DNA from: Methanofastidiosum sp.
GTDB taxonomy: Archaea; Methanobacteriota_B; Thermococci; Methanofastidiosales; Methanofastidiosaceae
DNA length: 64,000 bases
Reading direction: 5' to 3'
Assembly: GCA_040771805.1 (NCBI GenBank)
Contig: JAXGZJ010000001.1
Coordinates: 830,796 to 894,795 of the forward strand
Notes under the pieces: model-generated
The model's database searches: none
What the model saw: only the letters and a program-made list of their open reading frames with translations
Told to the model about the DNA's origin: nothing
Program-made: the position numbers and the translations under genes
In this document: piece after piece, positions 5,415-54,841 of the stretch
How positions within the stretch are numbered: the first letter of the stretch is position 1
Layout: each line of letters begins with the position of its first letter

Positions 5415-6323
5415 TTATTTCATTCCTAATATTTTTTTTGGATTAGTTATAGCCATCGTTTTTAATGCCTTTTCTGAGATGCCTTCTTTATTTAACAAGT
5501 TCATATATGTTTCAAGACATTCACTTGATGAAGGATTTTTTATTTGGCCTGCGTCAGAAGAGATTATGCAGTGTTCATAGCCTACCTCTTCAATATCTTT
5601 TTTTATTGTTTTAAGAGGATAGTCTTCTGGATGATCTCTATCTAGCCACATAACATAACAGTGCTCAATATAAGCTCCTTTTAATGCAAGTTCTTTTTGA
5701 ATTTCAATTGGCATATTGATATCTCTTTGCATTGGGTGAGTAACGATTGTGGGAATGCCCATTTTTAAAGCCTCTTTTGCTAGAACATAGCTTTCTTGCC
5801 ATGAAAGGTGTCCTGTTGCTAGAATACAATTATTTTCTTTTATTGCTTTAAGAACTCTAATACACTTTTCAAATAATTTAGAATTCCAATCTGTAACTTT
5901 TATGGCTTTAAGTTCAGATTTTAGTCTTGGCTTGAATTTTGGATCTCTTACCCACTCTGGGGGTATTTCATACTGACTATGATTTTTCAACAAATGATTT
6001 TCTGCATGTATTGTGGGAAACCACACTATTATTGGTGCACCTTTTGACATTGTTGCTGAAGCATATATTGCACTTGGATTAAATCCTCCCATGAAATAGT
6101 TTAAAGTAATTGAACCTATTAAAAAAGGAAATTCTGATTTTTTTTCAATTGTATTTATTGCGGATATTGTTGGAAATGCATGAGATTTTAATGCTATTCC
6201 AGTAATTTTTCCTTTTTCATTTTTCAAAAGGCTTTCAACTGTATCCTTTCTTGGAAGAATATCTGGGCCTATATGATAATGCATATCTATTGCATCTTTT
6301 ACTATTGAAGGAATTCCGGACAT
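5415..6323 (-). CDS. Metal-dependent TIM-barrel hydrolase (Amidohydro_2-like)
   Basis: N-terminal DMHYH metal-binding motif and C-terminal IISSDAG aspartate motif; stop overlaps the start of the upstream gene. Confidence 0.5.
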   Translation of the reverse strand: MSGIPSIVKDAIDMHYHIGPDILPRKDTVESLLKNEKGKITGIALKSHAFPTISAINTIEKKSEFPFLIGSITLNYFMGGFNPSAIYASATMSKGAPIIVWFPTIHAENHLLKNHSQYEIPPEWVRDPKFKPRLKSELKAIKVTDWNSKLFEKCIRVLKAIKENNCILATGHLSWQESYVLAKEALKMGIPTIVTHPMQRDINMPIEIQKELALKGAYIEHCYVMWLDRDHPEDYPLKTIKKDIEEVGYEHCIISSDAGQIKNPSSSECLETYMNLLNKEGISEKALKTMAITNPKKILGMK

Positions 6324-7564
6324 TAATTACCCCTCCTCTGAAGTTTATTCTCATCTAAAGACATAATATTTCCATTTTTTATTACACAAGGAATGATTTC
6401 ATCACTATTTAAGATATCAAGTTTTGACATAGCATCTGTAATTATTATATCCGCCTGTTTTCCTTCTTCTATTCCGTAATTTAATCCTAAAAGTTTTGCA
6501 CCATTTGTCGTTGCCATGGAAATAGCTCCGTCTATATACTCTCTTGTAGTCATCCTTGTTGCAGATATTAGCATATGAAGCTCACGTATCATGCTGCAGT
6601 TTCCAAATGGATAAAAGATGTCTCGTATATTGTCAGTCCCTATCGCGATGTTAATTCCATTGTCAAATAACTCTGTAACTCTGGTAATACTATTTGAAGG
6701 TCTCATCCAAAGGTCATTTATTTCTACAAACCTTGTAATCATGTTTGCACTTGGAGTCACTATGACGTTAATTCTTAATGATTTCATTTGTTCGATTATT
6801 TTTTTTGCTTTTTCTGTCGGCATTCTTGAAAGTGCTATTGCATGTGTTACAGTTACTCTGCCCTCATAATTTTCTTCCTTTGTCTTTTTTAGTACCTCGG
6901 GTAATATCGCTAGCCTAGGATCATTTGTTTCATCTACTTGGATGTCAAGCGCTTTATTGTACTGCTTTGCTAGTTCAAAAAGTATTTCAAGGTGTTTTTT
7001 TTCATTTCCTTTCTCTTCTACAAGTGGAAGCCCACCTACCACATCAGCACCTAGTTCGATTGCCTTTTCCATCAAATCTCTTTTTGCCTCGTCTACCACA
7101 CCTTCTTGTGGAAAAGCTGCTATTTCAATGTGAACCCTATCTTTATACTTTTCTTTTATACTTAGAAGTGATTTTATTGGTATTATTCCAGCCGTTGGAT
7201 CTACATCAACTTGAGTTCTTATTGCAGTTATACCTTTCGAAAGCATCCTTTCTATTGTATTAGTTGCCCTTTTTTCTATATCGCTCTTTGAGTAAGAACT
7301 TTTCAATTTTTTTAATAAAATCCTATTTTCTTCAAGAGATTTACCAAGATGATCTTCTGTCATTTTATCTAGAAGATTTGATTTATCGAGGTGGCTGTGG
7401 GAATTTACAAATCCACTTAAAACATAATGCTTGTTTGCATCTATGTTTTTGTTTCCACTTTTTAACTTACCTATCTTTTCAATTATTCCATTATTAATAC
7501 CAATATCAGTAATTGTAGTATCAGTTATTCTTGCATTTTTAATAACAAGATTAAATTCGCTCAA
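6323..7564 (-). CDS. Amidohydrolase, cytosine deaminase/chlorohydrolase-like
   Basis: FVNSHSHLD HxH metal site near N-terminus, IGTDN and conserved His further on; motif looks more CodA-like than dihydroorotase-like. Confidence 0.6.
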   Translation of the reverse strand: MSEFNLVIKNARITDTTITDIGINNGIIEKIGKLKSGNKNIDANKHYVLSGFVNSHSHLDKSNLLDKMTEDHLGKSLEENRILLKKLKSSYSKSDIEKRATNTIERMLSKGITAIRTQVDVDPTAGIIPIKSLLSIKEKYKDRVHIEIAAFPQEGVVDEAKRDLMEKAIELGADVVGGLPLVEEKGNEKKHLEILFELAKQYNKALDIQVDETNDPRLAILPEVLKKTKEENYEGRVTVTHAIALSRMPTEKAKKIIEQMKSLRINVIVTPSANMITRFVEINDLWMRPSNSITRVTELFDNGINIAIGTDNIRDIFYPFGNCSMIRELHMLISATRMTTREYIDGAISMATTNGAKLLGLNYGIEEGKQADIIITDAMSKLDILNSDEIIPCVIKNGNIMSLDENKLQRRGN

Positions 7565-24444: not shown

Positions 24445-26205
24445 TCACTCTCCTAGAAGTGCTTTAAACTCTTTAGACATTGTTTCATTTATCAAACCTA
24501 TTTTTCTCTCGAAATCTTTTCTATATCGCACTTTAGACAACTCTGCTCGAGATTCAAGTTTTAGTAATTTGTCAATTTCAATTCCACTTTTAATTGCATT
24601 GTTGCCTAATCGAGAAAATCTAATAATTGCGTTTAAAAGTGAAAATTGCCTCTTTAAAGAATGAAATTCATCGACTTCATGATAAGAATCTTGTTGCAAA
24701 AATATTTCTCGTAACATTCTAGCGACATCTAATATGAACTGTTGGTCCGAGGGGAGTGCATCTGCACCTACAAGCTGCACGATTTCCTGTAGTTCAGCTT
24801 CTTTTTGTAATATTTTCATTGCTTCAGTTCTAGTTCTATCCCAATCAATAGAGATTTTACTCTCAAACCACTCTTTTAGTGAGTCATAGTAAAGTGAATA
24901 AGATTCAAGCCAGTTTATTGAGGGGAAATGTCTTTTTTGAGAAAGATTTGAATCTAGGGCCCAAAATGTTTTAGTAATTCTAAGTGTATTTTGAACTACC
25001 GGTTCGGAGAAATCTCCTCCTGGAGGGGAAACTGCGCCTATGATAGTTACCGAACCTATCTTCCCCCCTAATGTGACAACTATACCGGCTCTCTCATAAA
25101 AACTAGATAGCCTAGAAGATAGATATGCAGGATACCCTTCTTCACCTGGCATCTCCTCCAATCTTGAAGAAATCTCTCTCATGGCTTCTGCCCATCTAGA
25201 TGTTGAGTCTGCCATAAGTGCAACATCATACCCCATATCTCGATAGTATTCGGCAATTGTAATTCCTGTATAGATTGAAGCTTCTCTTGCTGCTACTGGC
25301 ATATTTGAAGTATTAGCTATCAGAACAGTTCTATCCATAAGGGGGCTGCCTGTTACAGGGTCTACTAGTTTAGGGAACTCTGTAAGAACATCAATCATTT
25401 CGTTTCCCCTTTCCCCACACCCAATATAAACAACTACTTTAGTATCGCTCCATTTAGCTAGTTGCTGTTGTATTACGGTCTTACCGCTTCCAAATGGCCC
25501 TGGAATAGCTGCAGTCCCGCCCTTTGCTAGGGGAAACAAAACATCCATAATTCTCTTGCCTGTAACTAAAGGAGCATTTGGGATCATTTTATCTTTGAAG
25601 GGTCTTGGAACTTTAACAGGCCACCTTTGATACATTTTAATAACTGTGCCATTATCCAACCTACACAATATATCTTCAGCAGTATATTTTCCTTGTTCAA
25701 CGATGTCAATAATTTCTCCTTGAATATTTGGAGGTGACATTATGAAGTGTTTTGTATGTTCATTCTCATTTACATACCCAATTGATTCGCCCAAATTTAT
25801 TCTATTTCCTTTTTTCTTTAACGGAAAGAATTCCCATTTCTTTTCTCGATCAATTCCCGGTACTTCAGCTCCTCTTTTAATAAATTCTCCCATTTGTTCA
25901 GAAAGTTTAGGCAATGGCCTCTGAACTCCGTCATATATTGAACCAAGTAATCCGGGTCCTAACTCTACAGATAAAGGCATACCTGTTGTAATTACTTCAT
26001 CCCCAGGTTTTAATAATGAAGTATCCTCATATACCTGAATAATTGTCTTATCATGATCAATTTCTATTACCTCACCAAATAATCCTTTGTTACCTACTCG
26101 GACTAATTCGTTTATTTTAGCATCAACATTTGTTGCTACGACTACCGGTCCGGAGACTCTATACACTGTACCTTTACTTCCCAAATTAATTACCCCAGAG
26201 GTCAA
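24445..26205 (-). CDS. atpA: A-type ATP synthase catalytic subunit A
   Basis: Walker A GPFGSGKT; 586 aa, no intein insertion. Confidence 0.9.
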
Positions 26206-43406: not shown

Positions 43407-44252
43407 CTATTCCACATGCTGCCATTTAATTTGGACATAAACTGTATCATCATCCCATATGTATTTTCCATTTGATTTATTGAATTTTGTTTCTATATAC
43501 TCAGCAAGATATTTGTCATTTTTAGAATCAGATATTCTTAGACGGAGTTTTAAGTCAGATATTGCTTGATCAATGCTATCATATATTTTTGGAAATGATG
43601 TACCCTTTAGCACAGTAATATTTGGAGATCTTCCCATATCATAGAGAACATTATAAATAACATTACATTTAGGTGAGGGTGTATAGTTGCTGCCATATAT
43701 TTTTTGATACAAATCCATGTACAACTTCTCCCAAGAAGTGACCCCAGAAAACCAATACAGGATAACTTCTTTATTGGAGCAATCTTCCATTTTAAGTAAT
43801 GACTCCTTAATATTTTGCATAAGAAGAGAATAAGAAGCTATAACAATGTCATGTTTTTCTATTTTAGCTGTGTCAAAATTCTCCCATTTCGATTGAAAGA
43901 TTTCGATGTTTGTCAATCTTTCTTCTACGATATGTTTTTTTAGAAGATCAATCATTGATTGAGAGGGCTCAACAACAGTTACCTTCTTCACATATCTTGC
44001 TAAAGGAACTGCTAATACCCCCGGGCCAGCGCCTATATCAAGCACAGAGTAATTTTTATCAAAATTAAGTTCTTTTGCCCTTTTTTCCCCATCTTCCTTT
44101 ATTAATTTTGAGTTATCGTATGCTTCAGCACGTCTTTTATCATTATAATAATTCCTTTCATTTTCATTTTCTGGAAAAGAAAAATTGATTGTTTTATTCC
44201 AAATGGAATTCCAATCAATATAGTTTGACAAAGTTCCCCGATTAAAAGTCAT
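43407..44252 (-). CDS. Class I SAM-dependent methyltransferase embedded in the ABC importer operon
   Basis: SAM-binding motif I VLDIGAGPGVLAVPLA; sits between the binding-protein and permease genes. Confidence 0.65.
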   Translation of the reverse strand: MTFNRGTLSNYIDWNSIWNKTINFSFPENENERNYYNDKRRAEAYDNSKLIKEDGEKRAKELNFDKNYSVLDIGAGPGVLAVPLARYVKKVTVVEPSQSMIDLLKKHIVEERLTNIEIFQSKWENFDTAKIEKHDIVIASYSLLMQNIKESLLKMEDCSNKEVILYWFSGVTSWEKLYMDLYQKIYGSNYTPSPKCNVIYNVLYDMGRSPNITVLKGTSFPKIYDSIDQAISDLKLRLRISDSKNDKYLAEYIETKFNKSNGKYIWDDDTVYVQIKWQHVE

Positions 44253-45393
44253 TTGAGTCCATCCAGTCTAAAAGTTGAATTTCCTTTAGTCTCTGTGCTT
44301 GATTATCGTTTAATCCATAGAGCTCTTTGTGGTAGTCATTAACCCATTTGTTAACCTTTATATCACTGAATTTTTCAGGATATACAGTTTTTGCAGATAT
44401 AAGTAATATTGTAGGATAGTCAAGTTTAAAGTCTCCCCACCAAGTCAAAAGGCCAAAAGAACCTATTCTTCTATTTTTTACAGCGTTGACATTCTGCAAT
44501 GGTTTATATTTAGGGGCTGTACTTAATATGTTGATATCAGGCAATATAGAGTTGGTAGCAAGTATGATCACATCTGGATTCATGGTAATTATCTGCTCTG
44601 CTGACATTAATTGTGATTTGGATTCCCCATATACATTTTTTATGTTGCATATTTCTTCTGCAAACTTTGCGTCTCCGTAATTCTTACCCCAAACGGCACC
44701 TATACTATCATCTGTTTTCAGTCCAATATACATCACAGATGGCTTTTCAGAATCTTTGATGTCCTTAGTTCTATTATATACCATGTCCACATATTTCTTA
44801 GTAATGTCATGTATTTCTTTGGCACGTTTTTCCTTATTAAATACTTTTCCTAATATTATAATTCCTTCATATTGGGTATTCATTGTAGGATTGCTATACG
44901 CTCCGGGGGTATTAATTACTACAATGGGTATTTTAAGTTCATTTTCAATTCTATCCATTGCTTCTTTAGTTATTTCATTGTCTTTAATATATTCTGAGTT
45001 TGCCCAAAGGACTAAATCAGGTTTTACAGATATTAGAGTTTCAAAATTGAACCCCCCAAAGGTATAGCCTACATTTGGAAGCTCTATTATCTTAGGAAAT
45101 AGATATAAACTGTCCCTATCTTCTGCTTTTTCATTTTCTGAAGATAACATTCCACCACTTGCAACTATTTTATCTTGGACGCCCAAAGCAACTATGTTTT
45201 GTGTTATGAAGCCTTTATCAACAATAACAACTCTTTGAGGGTCAGAGGGAATCGTCACCGTCACTCCTCTCATATCAACTATTTCTTTCATGGCAATCTT
45301 CTGTGGTGAACTGGTATTTTGTACACATCCTAAAAAACTAAATGTTAAAAATAAAATCACCATAGTAATCAAAATATTATTTTTGTTTTTCAT
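44242..45393 (-). CDS. ABC transporter substrate-binding protein (cluster A-II/BtuF/FepB-like, probable lipoprotein)
   Basis: Signal peptide with lipobox-like FSFLGC; periplasmic binding protein 2-like. Confidence 0.75.
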   Translation of the reverse strand: MKNKNNILITMVILFLTFSFLGCVQNTSSPQKIAMKEIVDMRGVTVTIPSDPQRVVIVDKGFITQNIVALGVQDKIVASGGMLSSENEKAEDRDSLYLFPKIIELPNVGYTFGGFNFETLISVKPDLVLWANSEYIKDNEITKEAMDRIENELKIPIVVINTPGAYSNPTMNTQYEGIIILGKVFNKEKRAKEIHDITKKYVDMVYNRTKDIKDSEKPSVMYIGLKTDDSIGAVWGKNYGDAKFAEEICNIKNVYGESKSQLMSAEQIITMNPDVIILATNSILPDINILSTAPKYKPLQNVNAVKNRRIGSFGLLTWWGDFKLDYPTILLISAKTVYPEKFSDIKVNKWVNDYHKELYGLNDNQAQRLKEIQLLDWMDSNDF

Positions 45394-45520
45394 AGAATCT
45401 CCTTAATTTTTAGTGTTATTATAGTAGCACTAATTTAGAAAACGTGTTATTAATTATTTATAAAGTTTATGGTTTAATATATAGTTAAAGGACTATTTAC
45501 TCATCGAAATATTTATATAC

Positions 45521-45541
45521 TTGGATGGTGACGCCATCCAT
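45521..45541. promoter_or_regulatory. Palindromic candidate operator, copy 1 (TTGGATGGTGACGCCATCCAT)
   Basis: 19 of 21 positions identical to the perfect palindrome at 54857..54877; preceded by TATA-like ATTTATATAC and followed directly by the ATG at 45542. Confidence 0.45.
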
Positions 45542-45685
45542 ATGAACAATAAATGTATTATCTGTAAGTGTGAATTAAATAAGAGGACTTATATTATCTG
45601 CGAAGATTGTTTTGAAAAATGCATCTCTCAATTGGAATTAACTGATTTTCACAAAAATAGAGAGGCTATCTTTATTATGGATTAG
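45542..45685 (+). CDS. Small zinc-ribbon protein, 47 aa (not in ORF track)
   Basis: ATG...TAG ORF encoding MNNKCIICKCELNKRTYIICEDCFEKC... with CxxCKC-x9-CxxC; promoter-like TATA and palindrome just upstream. Confidence 0.35.
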   Translation: MNNKCIICKCELNKRTYIICEDCFEKCISQLELTDFHKNREAIFIMD

Positions 45686-45771
45686 GATGATAAAAGTAAT
45701 ATAAACAATGAAAAAGTTAATAAATAAACTATAATTCTTACCACAATGCAAAACACAAGAGGTAATTACCA

Positions 45772-45906
45772 TTGAAGAATGAAATCACGATAAATTTTCC
45801 AAAGGACATCAGAGAGTACTGCCCAAAATGTAAGTGTTACCTATATCCTGTAAAAGATCATATTTGCTACTTCTGCAAAAGTAAAACTATTCCCCATAAA
45901 GAATAA
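45772..45906 (+). CDS. Small zinc-ribbon protein paralog, ~44 aa (TTG start; not in ORF track)
   Basis: ORF encoding (M)KNEITINFPKDIREYCPKCKCYLYPVKDHICYFCKSK... with the same CxxCKC-x9-CxxC spacing; AGAGGT SD-like element 8 nt upstream. Confidence 0.3.
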   Translation: MKNEITINFPKDIREYCPKCKCYLYPVKDHICYFCKSKTIPHKE

Positions 45907-45912
45907 AAATAA

Positions 45913-46473
45913 TTAAGAATTTTTAAAAGAATTCTCTTCAAATTCCTTATGAATTTGCTGCATCCATTCAGGTATAGATATTTTGTCCTCAGGGTAAAAG
46001 TTTCTAACATACGGTTTGATATCAACTACAGGACTACCATCGACCGCATCCAGCCCCGTAACCTCTAAAACATTCCCTCTTATACCATGCAAACGGACAA
46101 CAGTCATAAGTATAGGATTTGGTCTTGCAGGGCTACATGTGGCAAATATACCTACCTTTGAAAAACATTCTCTTCCCATAGGATGTACTTTTGTCAAAGA
46201 TCGACTTTGCTCTGGAACTTTATGGGCCCAGTATAAAATTATAAGATGGGAATATTTTTCAACCCCTTCAAGGATATCTATGATATCATTATCAATAATA
46301 ATTTCTGATATTTCCTCATTGATTTGACGAATTTGTTTCATATTGGCTTTGTTCTGTTCCTTCATCTTTATTCCCTCATTTCCGGCAACAAGGGAGGGTT
46401 CATTATTGTTATTTCTTACAATACCAATCGGCCTTACTATCAAATTTCCTGCATTTTTATTATCTTTAATCAT
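45913..46473 (-). CDS. TsaA/YaeB (TrmO-like) family protein
   Basis: VRPIGIVRN N-terminus and RPNPILMTVV...VTGLDAVDGSPVVDIKPY core motifs. Confidence 0.6.
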   Translation of the reverse strand: MIKDNKNAGNLIVRPIGIVRNNNNEPSLVAGNEGIKMKEQNKANMKQIRQINEEISEIIIDNDIIDILEGVEKYSHLIILYWAHKVPEQSRSLTKVHPMGRECFSKVGIFATCSPARPNPILMTVVRLHGIRGNVLEVTGLDAVDGSPVVDIKPYVRNFYPEDKISIPEWMQQIHKEFEENSFKNS

Positions 46474-46513
46474 GTTTCAACCTTCTAACTCTATAGATAG
46501 ATTTTTATCAAAG

Positions 46514-47611
46514 TTATCTTATTCTTATTCCGTCCCCAGTTAATTTATTATATCTGCTCTTTGAACAAGGATAGCAATAATTTCCTCCGTTGCTTTTAGA
46601 TATCCTTGTAGCCATTACGTTTTCCTTACAACAATCACATAAAATGCTATCATATATTGGGGCATATTCTGGGATATCTGCCTTCACTTTTTTTATTGAA
46701 AAAAGGCTATCAAAGTCCATTTTAAGCATGTTAAACGAGACCTCTTTTCCATATTGTTTAAATAAAGAATAATCTTCTTCGTTTCCAGCCCTATCTCTTA
46801 CTACTTTATTAAATAATTCAAAATACTCAGGAAAGTTTTTTTCAAGACCATTTCTGTAATCAGGATTAACAGAAACTCTTATCCCATTGCCATCTCTTCT
46901 AGATAGTGTTACGGCATTTTTTCCAAAATCCCGATAAATAAGGGCATTATTTCCAAATGTACATCCAGTAACATATTGGACGCCATCTGACATGCAATTA
47001 TTTGCTTCAACAATAGCGATTACTTCTTCCATCCCATCTGAAATTTCTTTGATTTCATTCATCAGATAAGCGCTTGCCCTAACTCCAAGGGATAATCCCG
47101 GGCAATAGTGGCCATGAATTGTTCCTGCCGTAATGAGTAGTTTTTCTAAATCATTCTCAGCAATGTACCTAGTTATTTCTGATCTTGGATTGTTTTTTAG
47201 GTAGCTTAGATTTTCAGCTTCTTGACCCTTTTCATCAAGAAAAGCAGAGTACGGTTTTATATCAATAACAGGTGTTCCATCGATTGCGTCAAGTCCCTTT
47301 ACTAGAAGCTCGTTACCTTTTCTTTCCAATAGCTCTACCGTAGTTAGGCCTATATTTGTCGGCCTTCGTGGGCTTCTAGAAGCAAAAACACCTTTTACTT
47401 CGCCCCCATACCTAGGGCCAATAAGTTCAAAATCTTTAGAAAGATGAAAAACAAACATTACCTGGAGATATCTGCTCTCCTCTATCTTATATAGTCCATC
47501 TTCAAAATCTTTGTCTACTATGATTGTACTCTCTGTCTTTCTTAATATATTTGGGTCTACTTGCTCCCTAAAATTATTTTTTACTGTTCCTATCTTTTTA
47601 ATATGCTCCAT
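46514..47611 (-). CDS. Fusion protein: N-terminal TsaA/YaeB-like domain, FmdE-like domain, C-terminal zinc ribbon
   Basis: RRPTNIGLTTV...KGLDAIDGTPVIDIKPY (TsaA-like); HGHYCPGLSLGVRA (FmdE-like); CDCC...CYPC C-terminal cluster; start uncertain (track start 47680). Confidence 0.6.
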   Translation of the reverse strand: MEHIKKIGTVKNNFREQVDPNILRKTESTIIVDKDFEDGLYKIEESRYLQVMFVFHLSKDFELIGPRYGGEVKGVFASRSPRRPTNIGLTTVELLERKGNELLVKGLDAIDGTPVIDIKPYSAFLDEKGQEAENLSYLKNNPRSEITRYIAENDLEKLLITAGTIHGHYCPGLSLGVRASAYLMNEIKEISDGMEEVIAIVEANNCMSDGVQYVTGCTFGNNALIYRDFGKNAVTLSRRDGNGIRVSVNPDYRNGLEKNFPEYFELFNKVVRDRAGNEEDYSLFKQYGKEVSFNMLKMDFDSLFSIKKVKADIPEYAPIYDSILCDCCKENVMATRISKSNGGNYCYPCSKSRYNKLTGDGIRIR

Positions 47612-48374
47612 TATTTTTCCTCCCCACTGGAATAACAAACGGGTAGCCATCGTGCTCCTTAATATAGACATCCACACCATATACTTCTTTAATTAATTTT
47701 GGAGTAATTATATCGTGGCCTCCAACTGAATCAATCATTCCCCCTTTTAAAAAGATGAATTTGTCTGAAAATCTTAGGGCGGAATTAATATCATGCATTG
47801 TCATTATAACTGATACATCATGTCCATCCACAATTTCTGATAAGAGGTACAGTATTTCCTGCTGATTTTTAAGATCTAGACTTGATGTAGGTTCATCCAA
47901 TAATAGTATTTTTGGCTCTTGAACTATTGCTCTGGCTATTCCGACTTTTTGTAATTCTCCACCACTTAACTCATCTAAATACCTTAAAGAGAGATCTTCC
48001 ATGTTTAATTTTTTCATGGCAGAGTTAACTAATGAAATATCCTTGTTAGATACATCCCACTTTATATGGGGTTTCCTACCAAGTAAGATGGCATCAAATA
48101 CAGTTATCCTTACAGTTTCGTTTCTTTGTGGAACATAACCTAACTTCTTTGCTATTTCTATTCTTTTAATATTCATAATATCTTGATTCTCTACCAGTAT
48201 ACTTCCACCTTGTGGCCTTAGAATTCTATTTATGCATTTGAGAAGTGTAGTTTTGCCCACGCCATTTGGGCCTAATATACTTAAAATTTCATTCGACTCT
48301 AAATTAAAGTCTATTTGATTGAATATTTCTTTATTTTTATAACTAAATTTTAAATTAGATATTTCAAGCATCAT
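47598..48374 (-). CDS. ABC transporter ATP-binding protein (FepC/BtuD-type), second system
   Basis: Walker A GPNGVGKTT, signature LSGGELQ, Walker B LLLDEPTS. Confidence 0.85.
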   Translation of the reverse strand: MMLEISNLKFSYKNKEIFNQIDFNLESNEILSILGPNGVGKTTLLKCINRILRPQGGSILVENQDIMNIKRIEIAKKLGYVPQRNETVRITVFDAILLGRKPHIKWDVSNKDISLVNSAMKKLNMEDLSLRYLDELSGGELQKVGIARAIVQEPKILLLDEPTSSLDLKNQQEILYLLSEIVDGHDVSVIMTMHDINSALRFSDKFIFLKGGMIDSVGGHDIITPKLIKEVYGVDVYIKEHDGYPFVIPVGRKNNGAY

Positions 48375-49470: not shown

Positions 49471-49491
49471 ATGTCTAGGTTTACTAGACAT
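49471..49491 (-). terminator. Intra-operon hairpin followed by a U-tract, between binding-protein and permease genes
   Basis: ATGTCTAG-GTTTA-CTAGACAT (8-bp stem) followed on the coding strand by TTTTATTTTTTT, then the GGAGG RBS of the permease. Confidence 0.35.
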
Positions 49492-50591
49492 CATATATCT
49501 AATTTTTTAAAGCCTATATTATTGAACTCAGAGTTTAATTCACTAAACACAGCTTTACCAAATAAAAATGTATAAATTTCGTCTGCTTTTTTAACTGGAT
49601 CTATATCTGAGAATTTTTCTGGATAAATAACTTTTCCGACGAAGTAAGCATCAGCTAAAACTGATCCTTGATTTGCATTATACCAATTATAGGGTATCAC
49701 TGCGTAGACTTCTCCAGATTTTACGGCACTTAATTTTTTATATGCTGAGTCCTTTTTCAATTCATCAATTGCTGTATCTGTTTCTAATTGTATTGTAGCA
49801 ATATCAACAAATAGTATGTCCGGATCCCACTCTACTATCTTTTCTTTAGCAACTTCTGTTCCTTGGCTCCCCAATGCTGAAGCAACGTTATTTGCATTTA
49901 CAAAGATAAATGGGGGGTAACCTGGCTCTGTTGAATGTAAACCGTGTGGGCCTGCCCTCGCCACTCCACCAATGTATACTGATTTTCTCTGGGATTCAGG
50001 TACATCCTTTGTCCTGTTGTTTAAATCTTCAATCCCCTTATCAAAGAAGGATATTACTTCTTCTACTCTAGCTTCTTTGTTCATTACTTTTGCCATAATT
50101 CGCCAGGTTTTATACATTTCACTCCTATTTTTACCAAGATCTCCATAGTTTAATGCAACTACTGGAATTCCAGTTTTAGTTTGAAGTTTATCGGCATCTT
50201 CAATTGTTGTTTGAACTTTGAATATTATTTGGGGATTCAAAGCAATTATTTTTTCGGGATCGTCTTTTCCACGAAACTCTCCAAATATTGGGTAGTCTCT
50301 AAATTGTCTATTTGCAATTGCATATGGTCTTGCATCAAACTTAGAAGTTCCTTTTTCAATGTCATCTACACCGACTATTTTATCGTGAGCTTGTAGATAA
50401 GTTAGGTACCTTAGGCACCCTGAACCTGAACAAATTACTTTAGTTGGATTTACAGGTACAGTTACTTCTCGTCCGAGCGAATCGGTTATTTTCATTGTTT
50501 TTTGTGAAGTATCCGTTGTGTTGCTAGTGCATCCTGCTGACAAAAACATTGCAGCTACTAACACTGCAATAATAAAAATATTTGCACACAT
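49491..50591 (-). CDS. ABC transporter substrate-binding protein (BtuF/FepB-like lipoprotein), second system
   Basis: Start placed at internal Met (MCANIFIIAVLVAAMFLSAGC, lipobox-like); track ORF extends to 50729. Confidence 0.7.
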   Translation of the reverse strand: MCANIFIIAVLVAAMFLSAGCTSNTTDTSQKTMKITDSLGREVTVPVNPTKVICSGSGCLRYLTYLQAHDKIVGVDDIEKGTSKFDARPYAIANRQFRDYPIFGEFRGKDDPEKIIALNPQIIFKVQTTIEDADKLQTKTGIPVVALNYGDLGKNRSEMYKTWRIMAKVMNKEARVEEVISFFDKGIEDLNNRTKDVPESQRKSVYIGGVARAGPHGLHSTEPGYPPFIFVNANNVASALGSQGTEVAKEKIVEWDPDILFVDIATIQLETDTAIDELKKDSAYKKLSAVKSGEVYAVIPYNWYNANQGSVLADAYFVGKVIYPEKFSDIDPVKKADEIYTFLFGKAVFSELNSEFNNIGFKKLDI

Positions 50592-50939
50592 TTTTTTATT
50601 TTTGATAAAAACACCTCCGCCAAATAGAATAAGTATTCTATTTATAAGTATTACGTTTTTTTGATACGTGCTACTATTTTTATAAAATCTATCTTTAATA
50701 ACACTTGATAAATTTTTCAATTGCAGCATTGATTCTGTTTCTAGCTTTACTTGATATACTAATTGTCAAAATTCTTTGTAAAATCTAAGTTATTTTCCTT
50801 CTCTATTTCTGAGTAAGGAGGATATAATTAATCAATGCAGTTATAGTCTTTTTCTATAAATATATGCTTTGTTGAATAATTCCAAACAAACGACAATTAT
50901 CTCTAACTTGCCCTTTCTTTACCTTTAGCTTTACACTAG

Positions 50940-51720
50940 CTGTTGCAGTTGGTCATCAGCAGAAATTCATCATCACTTCCTTTTGTGCCATGTCAAATCG
51001 TTTGGCGGTAGTTCCTTCGCCAAATGAGCGCTTGACCGCAGAGAAATATGATTCTATGCGCCACCGCTTGTCATATTCGTATTTCTCTTTCCATGAAATC
51101 TAGCCAATCTTTTTCACTTCCCACATTGACTTAGCACGCAGAGGCGACCTAAGGGGCGTGTTGAGACATTTTTTTGTATCTTTATTATTGAACTGCATTC
51201 TTTTTAGCGGCAATATCAACCATGTTTCTTGTGTCGTAGGCTCCGTCTGCTATAAGAACTTTGAAAGCTACCCCATCAGCTAAAAAATGCTCATTTAGCT
51301 ATCGTGGGCATCTCTATCTGTAACAACTATACCGATTAGTTTTCCTGTCTTAGCGTCGATGGCAGCATGCGCCTTTAGGTAGTTCTTATTTTTCCCGTAG
51401 AGGTAGTTTATCCAGCTCCCGGCATCAGTCATCTTAAATCCGGTGCTGTCGCTTACCACAGTAAGCTCTGAAACATCTTCTATCACCTCAAGCTCAAATT
51501 TCATCTGAAGTATTCTCCGTCAGATGGTGGCGTAGTCTGCCGACTTGATCTTAGGTGAATACTTGGATATAGCTTGAAGAAAGCCTTTGGTCTACCTACA
51601 CCTTAGCCCGCAGACTGTCCTTACAGTTGTTACAAATCTGATGAAAGATTCCTGGTAGGGGATATGATCTTCTGACCTTATCATTGTTCATTAGAGCTAG
51701 CTCTTTGTTCAATATATCGT
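50940..51720 (-). mobile_element. Remnant of an IS4/IS5-family insertion sequence; ends not defined
   Basis: GC-rich patch in an AT-rich background; transposase motifs found in three different frames. Confidence 0.5.
50956..51692 (-). pseudogene. IS5-like DDE transposase, disrupted by frameshifts and stops
   Basis: Reverse-strand translations give AIDAKTGKLIGIVVTDRDAHD, KVLIADGAYDT and YDKRWRIESYFSAVKRSFGE in different frames. Confidence 0.55.
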
Positions 51721-51744
51721 TTAAAAAATCAAAAGATTGATAAA

Positions 51745-53061
51745 CTACCACAATGACTTGCTTAGTATTTCTCTACTGTTAATAACTCTGCATTCTATAA
51801 CAAGGGAAGTTTCATTGACAAATGATTTTATTCGTTTTTCAGTATGTCCTACCATCCCTCCGCTTGTAAGGATAAGGCATTGTTTTCCAGACAATGAAGT
51901 CAAAATAGATTTATCAATAACGTTGGAAGTTACATCAAGGCTAATATTGTCCTTGCTACAAATAGATTTGCTTTTAGAGCCCATTGCTCCCACATATTGG
52001 ATCTTATATTCACCGATAATATTCTGGACTTCTTGAAAGTCATAAAAATCAGTATTATAGATATATATTCTTCCAATATTCTGATGATTGTGGAACTCAA
52101 TAATTGCATTGTTATCTTGGGACTTATAAAAAACAGTTCCCTTCTTAAAGTAGTGATCATTTGGAACATCGTTAAACTCAACTAGATCCCCAACTTTTTT
52201 GTCTGAAGAAATCTTCCTCCACTTTAAATTAGAAGGTTTTAAGAAACCGACTAATTCCAAAAGATTTTTCGGAGTTTTGCCGTCTGTGGCTAAATTTCTA
52301 TTTACAAGTTCATTATATATCTGAATTATAAGGGGAGTTTTAAGATGTGTTTTTTTAATTAGTTCCTTTTCTTTAAACAGCGTATCTGGAGTTCCCTGGC
52401 CAACTATCTTTCCGTCAGCCATTAAATAAACGTAATCAGACCATTGATAAGCCAGCTCGATATCATGGGTAGAAATTATTATTGTTTTGCCGTAGCTATT
52501 GAGCTCATTTAGTATGTCCATAACTTCATTGGCGCCTCTAGGGTCAAGATTAGACAGTGGCTCGTCCAAAACGATGATGTCAGGTTCCATTACAAGTATG
52601 CCTGCTATTGCAGCTCTTTTCTTTTGGCCACCACTTAAATGATGAGGGGATTTTTCTTTTATATGGAGGAGATCAACATAATCCAAAGCCAATTCAGTGT
52701 ACTTTTTAACCTTATCTTCATCCCATCCAAGATTCATAGGGCCAAACGCCACGTCCTGATAGAGAGTTGGTGCAAAAAGTTGATCATCCGGATTTTGGAA
52801 TACCATCCCAACTCTTTTTCTGATTTCAACTAGATTTTTACTGCTATATTTCATTTTTTCTCCATTAAATATAATCTCTCCTTCAGTTGGGGCATGAATC
52901 CCATTAAACATTAAAAAAAGAGTGGATTTTCCAGCTCCGTTTGGGCCTACAAAGGATATTTTTTTACCTGCCTCTATTCTGATATTTACCCCCTTGAGGG
53001 CCTCAAACCCATCTCCATAAGTATATCTGACGTTTTTAGCTACAATGATAGGATTAGTCAT
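51745..53061 (-). CDS. cbiO: Cobalt ECF transporter ATPase CbiO with a ~150-aa C-terminal extension
   Basis: Walker A GPNGAGKST, signature LSGGQKKR, Walker B IVLDEPLS; 438 aa, longer than a typical CbiO/EcfA. Confidence 0.85.
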   Translation of the reverse strand: MTNPIIVAKNVRYTYGDGFEALKGVNIRIEAGKKISFVGPNGAGKSTLFLMFNGIHAPTEGEIIFNGEKMKYSSKNLVEIRKRVGMVFQNPDDQLFAPTLYQDVAFGPMNLGWDEDKVKKYTELALDYVDLLHIKEKSPHHLSGGQKKRAAIAGILVMEPDIIVLDEPLSNLDPRGANEVMDILNELNSYGKTIIISTHDIELAYQWSDYVYLMADGKIVGQGTPDTLFKEKELIKKTHLKTPLIIQIYNELVNRNLATDGKTPKNLLELVGFLKPSNLKWRKISSDKKVGDLVEFNDVPNDHYFKKGTVFYKSQDNNAIIEFHNHQNIGRIYIYNTDFYDFQEVQNIIGEYKIQYVGAMGSKSKSICSKDNISLDVTSNVIDKSILTSLSGKQCLILTSGGMVGHTEKRIKSFVNETSLVIECRVINSREILSKSLW

Positions 53062-53849
53062 AAAATCACTCCAATTCCCACATTTCTCGTAGTATATGTT
53101 AAGATTATTATAAATAAAAGATACAATATTGACACCACTGCTTCTCTCAAAGATATAGGTTTGGTGTCTTTAAAAATAGATATTTTTCCATCATAGCATC
53201 TTGAATTCATGGCAATGTAAAGCTTTTCCCCTTGATCCCAAGTCCGTATAAATAATGTGCTTGCAAGTATGGCAAGAGAATGCATCCAATTCTTAAAAGA
53301 GATGTATCCCATTCTCATATTTTGAGCATCTTCCATTTTCATTGCCAAATCCAAGAATACAAATATATACCTATATATCAGCATGGATAATTCAATAAAT
53401 ATTTCAGGTAATTTTAACTCTTTTAAAACATAAAATAGATGTGTTACAGGTGTAGACAGGGATAAGAAGTAAAGGCAACTCAGTCCAGAAATTGAGCGTG
53501 AAAAAACAAGGACCGCCATATTCAGCCCCCCCATAGTTATTGATAATTTATAATTAAAGATATTAAATGAAATAATATCGGGGCCTGTTCCAAAAAAGAA
53601 TAATATAATTAAAATTCCAAATATCAAAAAAGTACCTGGTATTAATAATAACTTAAGATAAATTTTGACAGGTACTTTATTGAGATATATAATCGCTAAA
53701 CCAAAAAAAAGTGAAATAATAATAGGAGTAACTGGTGATGTGGACATTACCCCTATTATCATAGAAGACAAGGCCAGCAATACTTTAAGCTCAGCATTTT
53801 TGTATCTAAGTGGGCTAATTATGGCATAGTCTTCTAATATCGTATGCAC
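53058..53849 (-). CDS. cbiQ: Cobalt ECF transporter T component CbiQ
   Basis: Polytopic membrane protein between cbiN and cbiO; overlaps cbiO start. Confidence 0.8.
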   Translation of the reverse strand: MHTILEDYAIISPLRYKNAELKVLLALSSMIIGVMSTSPVTPIIISLFFGLAIIYLNKVPVKIYLKLLLIPGTFLIFGILIILFFFGTGPDIISFNIFNYKLSITMGGLNMAVLVFSRSISGLSCLYFLSLSTPVTHLFYVLKELKLPEIFIELSMLIYRYIFVFLDLAMKMEDAQNMRMGYISFKNWMHSLAILASTLFIRTWDQGEKLYIAMNSRCYDGKISIFKDTKPISLREAVVSILYLLFIIILTYTTRNVGIGVIL

Positions 53850-53873
53850 AGATTGTACACCTTAATGCCATTT

Positions 53874-54143
53874 TTATTGTTTGCCTTTGTAAAATCCTAG
53901 GAAATACCCTATTATTAGTCCACCTATGGCTGCCTGGAGACTAAAGAATAAACTTTCAATCTCTCCGCTTGGCGGTTCCCATAAAGGTTGTACTATAGGT
54001 TCAAATTCTGGATTTAACTCAGCAATTACATCCCCAGCCTCATCGTCAGCTCCGCCCCATTCAAAACTGCCGGTTGAAGATACAACTACAAATGCAACTG
54101 CAAATATTAGGATTGAGATAATTGCTATTATTTCTCCTTTCAT
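53874..54143 (-). CDS. cbiN: Cobalt transport protein CbiN
   Basis: 89 aa, two TM helices flanking an acidic loop. Confidence 0.8.
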   Translation of the reverse strand: MKGEIIAIISILIFAVAFVVVSSTGSFEWGGADDEAGDVIAELNPEFEPIVQPLWEPPSGEIESLFFSLQAAIGGLIIGYFLGFYKGKQ

Positions 54144-54841
54144 GCTTTTGCACCTCTGCCTAATACTTCTTTTACTGTTTCTTTTGGCATTACCTTCATC
54201 TTTACGAGTATATCTGATCTAACCTGTAAAACATACTTTAAAAGTAGTGCAGTGAGAACACCTTCCATTAAAGCAAGTGGTACTTGTGTAACGGCAAATA
54301 CTGTGGCGAAAGAAGCAAATGAAGTCATGAATCCACCTTCTGCAGCAGGAAATGCCAAGGCGAGTTGAATTGAGGTCATTACATACGTAAACCAGTCAGC
54401 AAATGTTGCAGCAAAAAAAGCGGCTATGTAAAAGTTGATTTTGACCTTCATTAGTGCTTTATAGATAATATATCCAAATATAGGGCCAACTATACCCATC
54501 GAAAATGTGTTTGCCCCGAGTGTTGTAAATCCTCCATGAGCCAAAAATAATGCTTGGTATATCAAAGATATGAAAGACAAGACCGCAGTTACGAATGGAC
54601 CAAAAATAATTGCTCCTAGTGCTGTTCCTGTAGGGTGTGAACAACTGCCAGTGACCGAGGGTAGTTTCAGCGAAGATAAGACAAATATGTAAGCACCTGC
54701 TACAGCCAATAGTGGCAATATTTCTCTGTTTTGCTTGACTAACTTATTGATTTGATAGATTCCATATATTATAAATGGAACTGCCAAAACAAACCAAATA
54801 ATCCACCAAGGAGATGGTAGAAATCCTTCCATTATATGCAT
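54140..54841 (-). CDS. cbiM: Cobalt ECF transporter S component CbiM
   Basis: N-terminal MHIMEGFLP typical of CbiM; polytopic; overlaps cbiN start. Confidence 0.85.
   Translation of the reverse strand: MHIMEGFLPSPWWIIWFVLAVPFIIYGIYQINKLVKQNREILPLLAVAGAYIFVLSSLKLPSVTGSCSHPTGTALGAIIFGPFVTAVLSFISLIYQALFLAHGGFTTLGANTFSMGIVGPIFGYIIYKALMKVKINFYIAAFFAATFADWFTYVMTSIQLALAFPAAEGGFMTSFASFATVFAVTQVPLALMEGVLTALLLKYVLQVRSDILVKMKVMPKETVKEVLGRGAKA

Follow-up and report, generated by a model that had tools for sequence, protein, structure and literature searches.

Evidence for a dead relic of a native IS5-family, IS903-group insertion sequence between cbiO and an importer operon in Methanofastidiosum sp.

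Our analysis provides strong evidence that a GC-rich segment in the genome of Methanofastidiosum, an uncultured methanogenic archaeon, is the dead relic of a native insertion sequence (IS) of about 1.0 kb. The element very probably belongs to the IS903 group of the IS5 family, and what is left of it is almost certainly ordinary genomic debris in the spacer between cbiO, at the end of a cobalt-uptake operon, and the gene of an ABC importer's substrate-binding protein (SBP). The window, i.e. the whole stretch of 64,000 nucleotides that was analysed, matches a 318-kb metagenome contig (L008) at 100% identity; the closest relative with a name is L011, a MAG of Methanofastidiosum sp. Feature coordinates are collected in Table 1.

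Table 1. The IS relic, its lesions and its neighbours, in window positions.
Feature	Position	Strand or frame	Remarks
Whole IS relic	50865..51736	-	872 bp, positions 128-1003 of the ~1003-bp intact element (blastn)
Right terminal inverted repeat (IRR)	50865..50881	-	TGCTTTGTTGAATAATT on the plus strand; outermost base 50865; sequence exactly as in the IRR of intact copies
Transposase coding remnant	50931..51736	-	codons 21-289 and TAA stop (50931-50933); start codon absent (tblastn, P0001)
Truncation junction	51737..51744	-	8 nt, TTTATCAA in gene orientation, from the cbiO stop (51745-51747) to IS position 128
1-nt insertion (frameshift)	51659	-	IS position ~204
1-nt deletions, five	~51287, 51191, 51148, 50966, 50957	-	
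In-frame stop, codon 68	51592..51594	-	CAG to TAG
In-frame stop, codon 92	51520-51522	-	TGG to TGA
In-frame stop, codon 167	51295-51297	-	GAA to TAA; unique to the window relic
In-frame stop, codon 233	51100-51102	-	CAA to TAG
Catalytic D1	51436-51450	frame -2	DSTGF
Catalytic D2	51233-51250	frame -1	ADGAYD
Catalytic E	~51052-51066	frame -2	RWRIE
Tract 1	51320..51441	-	A-type (active lineage) in B-type (defective subfamily) backbone; IS ~424-543
Tract 2	50865..51051	-	A-type; IS 815-1003 including IRR; small B-type patch at IS 901-908
cbiO	51745..53061	-	438 aa, long form; last gene of cbiMNQO; Pfam ABC_tran; neighbours CbiQ, CbiN, CbiM, CbiJ
SBP gene (PF01497)	49491..50593	-	first gene of the SBP-FecCD-ABC importer operon
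Orphan spacer	50678..50864	.	187 bp, AT-rich; from IRR to the conserved importer promoter block

The segment 50940-51720 has a GC content of 0.426, against a mean of 0.329 (sd 0.030) for all 781-bp intervals of the 64 kb. It lies at their 99.9th percentile and overlaps the GC maximum of the window, and the whole relic, at 0.41-0.43, is the highest in GC (window mean 0.33). The sole comparable peak, second-highest in the window (24650-25050, ~0.41), falls within a minus-strand gene (24445-26205) for the catalytic subunit of the A-type ATP synthase and reflects the composition usual for a conserved gene, so that the relic is the only non-genic GC peak of the window. An intact copy of the same IS (L001) has a GC content of 0.429, and every copy of the family is similar to the relic in this respect.

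The stitched reverse-strand translation matches Pfam DDE_Tnp_1 (E=8e-18; 65 bits vs a cutoff of 23) and DDE_Tnp_1_5 (E=3e-12), as well as the NCBIfam model NF033579 'IS5 family transposase' (152 bits, where the curated cutoff is 140; the match spans profile positions 42-282 of 289). The nearest intact protein, P0001, has 289 aa and is 76% identical to the stitched query; its 90% cluster includes the NCBI entry 'IS5 family transposase [Methanofastidiosum sp.]' (HQF89379.1). When P0001 was mapped to the window by tblastn (E=1e-94), three segments were recovered in frames -1, -2 and -1, and in this alignment the catalytic motifs D, D and E are all present and in order. Frame -3 holds only a linker of about 14 codons (about 51149-51190).

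The transposase ORF, uninterrupted in the IS5 family, is broken in the relic by six 1-nt indels and four in-frame stops, i.e. ten lesions in addition to the 5' truncation. Lost in the truncation are 127 bp at the left end, which contained the left inverted repeat (IRL), the start codon and 20 codons. Of the two inverted repeats of the family only IRR remains; intact relatives have both. Because a single end is left and the frame is broken by six indels and four stops, the relic is unable to code for a transposase or to be mobilised by one, and because IRL is absent it is to be regarded as the relic of an IS5 member rather than as a functional one. A search of the 64-kb window for the left repeat returned only matches with 2-3 mismatches, which is chance level (4 found vs 1.6 expected; 9 of 100 shuffles reached 4), and no second IS remnant was found there by tblastn with four IS proteins. 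The 9 nt beside IRR read TATATTTAT in gene orientation and have no partner at the truncated junction, the left end being deleted. No RNA family or tRNA was found in the region when the whole window was searched with Rfam at gathering thresholds and a tRNA scan, and blastn gave no plasmid match for it. The relic has the same orientation as the surrounding genes.

These results bear out most of what an earlier sequence-only reading had described at this place. The GC-richness it reported is confirmed by the interval statistics, and both strings it quoted were found (51058-51070 and 51137-51160). Profile matches, tblastn and neighbour annotation agree with an IS5-like transposase pseudogene on the minus strand between importer and cbiMNQO, and the indels, stops and missing start codon agree with its inactivation. 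The three DDE motif regions it named were recovered, but the catalytic motifs occupy two frames and not three. Its extent, 50940-51720, covers the coding remnant but leaves out the non-coding 3' part (50865-50932), in which the right inverted repeat lies; the search for terminal inverted repeats that it proposed yielded this right repeat and no left one in the window.

A metagenome scan returned 40 loci with relatives of the element. Intact copies are mostly 1002-1003 bp long (991 bp in L040), contain one uninterrupted ORF of 289 aa and end in a 17-bp terminal repeat, TGCTTTGTTGMATAATT. The L001 element (502-1504) measures 1003 bp between the 17-bp terminal inverted repeats TGCTTTGTTGCATAATT and TGCTTTGTTGAATAATT, and its positions 629-1504 align to the relic with 85% DNA identity and 6 gaps (blastn); in L008, L042 and L043 the relic itself is 100% identical. 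Exact 9-bp target duplications flank the copies in L035 (GGAAATAAT), L036 (ACAAATATC), L040 (CATTTGTAT) and L047 (CACGGCCTC), and in L038 the duplication matches at 8 of 9 positions. According to PMC8431375, members of the IS903 sub-group measure 950-1150 bp, have inverted repeats, encode a DDE transposase and make a 9-bp direct repeat; the intact relatives show this length, the 9-bp duplication and relatedness to IS903 in both inverted repeat and transposase. Judged by sequence, the intact element is a predicted member of the IS5 family, IS903 group, native to Methanofastidiosum and uncharacterised until now; no paper on transposases in Methanofastidiosum was found in the library searched. 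The intact copies L001:502-1504 and L037:91-1093 have a common right flank (CCATATCAATC...) and different left flanks without a 9-bp duplication, a pattern that could stem from recombination between IS copies or from assembly chimeras.

Like IS903 and IS903B of Enterobacterales plasmids and Tn903, the element is about 1 kb long and has a single DDE transposase with an N-terminal DDE_Tnp_1_5 and a DDE_Tnp_1 match, and its intact relatives in Methanofastidiosum are flanked by a 9-bp target duplication. The inverted repeat of IS903B (GGCTTTGTTGAATAAATC, read from a Salmonella plasmid, L086) is identical to TGCTTTGTTGAATAATT of Methanofastidiosum at 15 of 17 positions. In contrast, IS903B measures 1057 bp from IR to IR (L086; length PMC8431375) and its annotated transposase CDS has 322 aa (L086 164-1132), compared with 1003 bp and 289 aa here. 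The transposase is also only about 28% identical (P0001 vs annotated IS903B transposases by tblastn: 28% over 93% of the length, E=4e-15; vs ISAba10: 30%), the host is archaeal, and the window copy is one-ended and multiply broken. The IS5 transposases of Methanofastidiosum MAGs (e.g. HQF89379.1) represent the same element: intact copies there have 92-99% protein identity to P0001, about 85% DNA identity to the window relic and the same inverted repeats. Unlike these copies, which are flanked by target duplications, the window copy is truncated, mosaic and apparently from a defective subfamily. The best match in the plasmid collection was an IS5-family element on the Sulfolobus islandicus plasmid pYN01 (WP_012717109.1; 36% identity over 90%), whose ends start with TGCTTTGT as in Methanofastidiosum, but it comes from another phylum, is much lower in identity, and its inverted repeats diverge beyond the first ~10 nt.

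The same IS family also has MITE-like derivatives, IRL-IRR forms of 294-692 bp in related metagenome contigs. Such short pairs were seen in L046 and L048 (499 bp), L055 and L056 (500 bp), L057 (407 bp), L060 (383 bp), L062-L064 (294 bp) and L061 (692 bp); they are internally deleted, some lie on contigs of more than 100 kb, and two share one 366-kb contig. The window copy has no left inverted repeat and hence is not a MITE or another non-autonomous mobilisable derivative. The parallel lies in its subfamily, in which inactivating lesions are common to several loci, as in trans-mobilised elements.

Relics at two further insertion sites, L002/L044 and L049, share 91% identity with the window relic, and the flanks differ at all three sites. 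Window, L002 and L049 have in common the 1-nt insertion, the stops at codons 68 and 92 and the 1-nt deletion at 50966 (IS position 901); the deletion at 51287 (IS position 577) and the codon-233 stop are found in the window and L049 only. Because at least four lesions recur in relics at two other insertion sites, the sequences suggest that the copy that inserted here was already defective, and that the subfamily may stem from one broken progenitor mobilised in trans. The lesions could also have spread by gene conversion among relics, without descent from such a progenitor. At the L002 site (L002:4642-5606 and 5797-6586) a full-length, two-ended B-type relic lies beside two phage-integrase-family gene fragments, on a Methanofastidiosum contig and downstream of a shikimate/aromatic amino-acid operon; this site may be a decayed integrated element.

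The relic is also a mosaic. Tract 1 comprises 14 consecutive A-type informative sites, and its run of identity extends over 122 nt (to L001) or 133 nt (to L035), compared with a maximum of 83 in 5000 shuffles. It is not intrinsically invariant, since the intact copies L038 and L040 differ from L001 within it. The informative sites of tract 2 follow the pattern AAAAABAAAAAAAA. The two tracts suggest recombination or gene conversion between IS copies; the mosaic could alternatively have arisen before insertion, given that no relative's contig reaches tract 1. Four assemblies end inside the relic (L009 and L010 at 51318, L088 at ~51454, L011 at 51573), three of them (L009, L010 and L088) at or near the edges of tract 1. 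These ends are repeat-induced contig breaks, which fragment Methanofastidiosum MAGs at this locus. A more far-reaching scenario, in which a trans-mobilised defective subfamily supplied the copy, the one-ended copy keeps converting with active copies, and the relic hitch-hikes between lineages on the cbiMNQO tract, is offered tentatively, as we consider it somewhat less probable than its negation.

Across close Methanofastidiosum relatives the gene order at this locus is constant (cbiJ-M-N-Q-O, then SBP-FecCD-ABC-TrmO/FmdE-TrmO), and the spacer occurs in three states. In state A (L079-L083; CbiO 88% identical to the window) it is empty and 138 bp long. In state B (L075, L084 and L085; CbiO 93%) it holds an ORF of 238 aa on the opposite strand. 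In state C (window, L008, L088 and L011; CbiO 100%, 100%, 98% and 96%) it holds the truncated IS relic. The spacer between cbiO and the importer is a local indel hot spot. In L011 and L088 the truncation junction is identical to that of the window, so that insertion and truncation predate the split of these lineages. Identity between window and L011 is 91.5% in the part of the relic that L011 has and 97.4% in cbiO; a relic diverging faster than cbiO is the pattern expected for unconstrained DNA, and the relic appears to be neutral. Blastn and tblastx searches with the orphan spacer, run against every retrieved locus and the remainder of the window, matched it only at the same locus in L008, L042 and L043; relatives in states A and B have nothing that corresponds to it.

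Several further observations concern the neighbours of the relic. The SBP gene probably starts with the ATG at 50593, which opens a signal-peptide-like sequence (MCANIFII...). Just upstream of a TATA-like CTTATAAATAG, before this gene, lies an operator-like inverted repeat, GTGTTACG-N11-CGTAACAC (L079:8396-8422; L085:2531-2557; L078:4854-4880; window 50648-50674), which is free of mismatches in relatives with state A or B, has a single mismatch in the distant L078 and is degenerate in the window (GTAGCACG-N11-CGTAATAC in gene orientation). The 238-aa ORF of state B (L085:1771-2487, minus strand; L084:8362-9078; L075:95-811) has no counterpart in the window and gave no Pfam or NCBIfam family. 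Inspection by eye suggests a membrane protein that has several transmembrane passes and a His-rich loop (about HVEEHEHDGHKHEHK), and from its position the ORF might encode a metal transporter. CbiO has a C-terminal extension of about 160 aa, and its identity drops abruptly from 88% to ~52% outside Methanofastidiosum, where the next relatives are long-form proteins of Methanosarcinaceae. This hints at a cbiMNQO type shared with, or transferred between, the two groups; the Methanosarcinaceae cbiMNQO loci (L012-L015) are too distant to inform the history of the locus.

Similarity along the locus changes in patches. Window and L079 are 94-100% identical (mostly at least 96%) over 43700-47900 and 83-94% from there to 59900, with a breakpoint from ~98% to ~87% at about 47.9-48.2 kb. 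Window and L011 are 93-99% identical over 51573-54800 and mostly 86-95% beyond, with a breakpoint from ~97% to ~87% at about 54.9-55.1 kb. Both breakpoints lie about 3 kb from the relic. Only the breakpoint between window and L085 coincides with the spacer, with 93-96% on the cbi side vs 77-86% on the importer side. Between L084 and L079, identity is 96.5-96.9% in cbiJ/cbiM and falls to 89-90% in cbiQ/cbiO. Taken from such alignments, the pattern suggests that homologous recombination between Methanofastidiosum lineages is frequent at the cbi-importer locus. Upstream of the importer, the distant relatives L077 and L078 carry another ECF module, a difference that is older than the IS.

The sequence-only reading had taken the GC content as a sign of fairly recent acquisition, and a recent horizontal arrival of a foreign element would indeed account for 0.41-0.43 over a background of 0.33 and for the empty site of the near-conspecific L079 (97-100% identical at 43700-47900). 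The tract of cbiMNQO and relic, at 93-99% between window and L011 compared with ~87% in adjacent cbi genes, also speaks for recent movement of some kind, and homologous recombination may have carried this tract, together with the relic, from one lineage to another. However, all copies of this IS have the same GC content (0.429), which is therefore uninformative on timing. The IS family is resident in Methanofastidiosum and not foreign, the copy has accumulated ten point lesions and a truncation, and the same truncated junction, identical in L011 and L088, is found in three lineages, the relic itself having diverged by 8.5%. We thus regard recent acquisition as improbable. Less probable still is that the relic is the scar of an IS-mediated rearrangement that joined cbiMNQO to the importer, a role close to the rearrangement boundary that had been suggested for it. 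In favour of such a scar, L077 and L078 (SBP 76-78%) have EcfT, a fused EcfAA' and an S component in place of cbiMNQO, the relic has lost one end, and similarity between window and L085 falls from 94% to ~82% exactly at the spacer. But cbiO and the importer are also adjacent, without any IS, in L079-L083 with their 138-bp spacer and in L075, L084 and L085, so that the adjacency predates the insertion or is independent of it and no rearrangement is marked here. Moreover, the 64-kb window holds no second IS copy or left end, and the similarity breakpoints with L079 and L011 lie at a distance from the relic. With gene order unchanged in relatives that have an empty spacer or a different insert, little is left of the suggested boundary.

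A surviving function is equally hard to reconcile with the relic. Its homologous segments do lie in different frames, as in a transposase made by programmed ribosomal frameshifting in some IS5 groups (IS427, IS1031). Those groups have two overlapping ORFs and one frameshift site; here the lesions are multiple and scattered, with six separate indels, four stops, no start codon and no left inverted repeat, and intact relatives use one 289-aa ORF and thus represent a lineage without frameshifting. We consider this explanation to be practically without chance. Co-option of a fragment, either of a 69-aa ORF or of relic DNA serving as cbiO terminator, spacer or regulator-binding region, is very unlikely too. 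The ORF (51295-51504) is called as a gene in the JGI annotation and has a DDE_Tnp_1 match, the relic has been kept in three lineages, and an IS-internal T6 run lies about 20 nt past the cbiO stop, where empty-site relatives have a T7 run and alternative-insert relatives a T5 run. Against co-option, the relic diverges faster than cbiO (91.5% vs 97.4%) and close relatives manage without it; the 69-aa ORF overlaps for the most part with the converted tract, where lesions are absent, and this accounts for its open frame.

The history that we favour for this dead native relic is a simple one. A defective IS copy would have transposed, by the ordinary DDE mechanism, into the spacer between cbiO and the SBP gene. 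A later illegitimate deletion would have removed its left 127 bp and whatever host DNA lay between these and a point 8 nt from the cbiO stop, and two patches would subsequently have been overwritten by gene conversion from active copies. The truncation is probably not an adjacent deletion made by the transposase, since IS903-type adjacent deletions leave the element whole (PMC11708052). A microhomology origin of the junction was considered, as the sequence that follows cbiO in state B, TTTATTGATTTTTATTTAC, resembles the IS-internal TCTTTTGATTTTTTAAAC, and was set aside: the 8 extra nt are not expected from a simple microhomology crossover. Today the relic would be inert, neutral DNA, except that the T-rich IS-internal sequence beside cbiO, with T-runs at about 51722-51734, may act as its oligo-T terminator; a residual regulatory effect on the flanking operons may likewise persist.

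Decayed IS copies are common, and this relic matters little in itself. It does explain why independent assemblies (L009, L010, L011 and L088) break just downstream of cbiO, and its proper annotation is that of a pseudogene or mobile-element remnant and not of a 69-aa 'gene'. The spacer states (empty, relic, 238-aa ORF), together with the shifting similarity along the locus, provide strain and lineage markers in Methanofastidiosum. The terminal repeat, near-identical to that of bacterial IS903 despite a transposase identity of 28%, points to conservation of end sequences across domains. If the tentative scenario given above is true, the locus would be a small natural record of IS-host dynamics, i.e. 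of trans-mobilisation, conversion and inter-lineage recombination, in an uncultured archaeal class.
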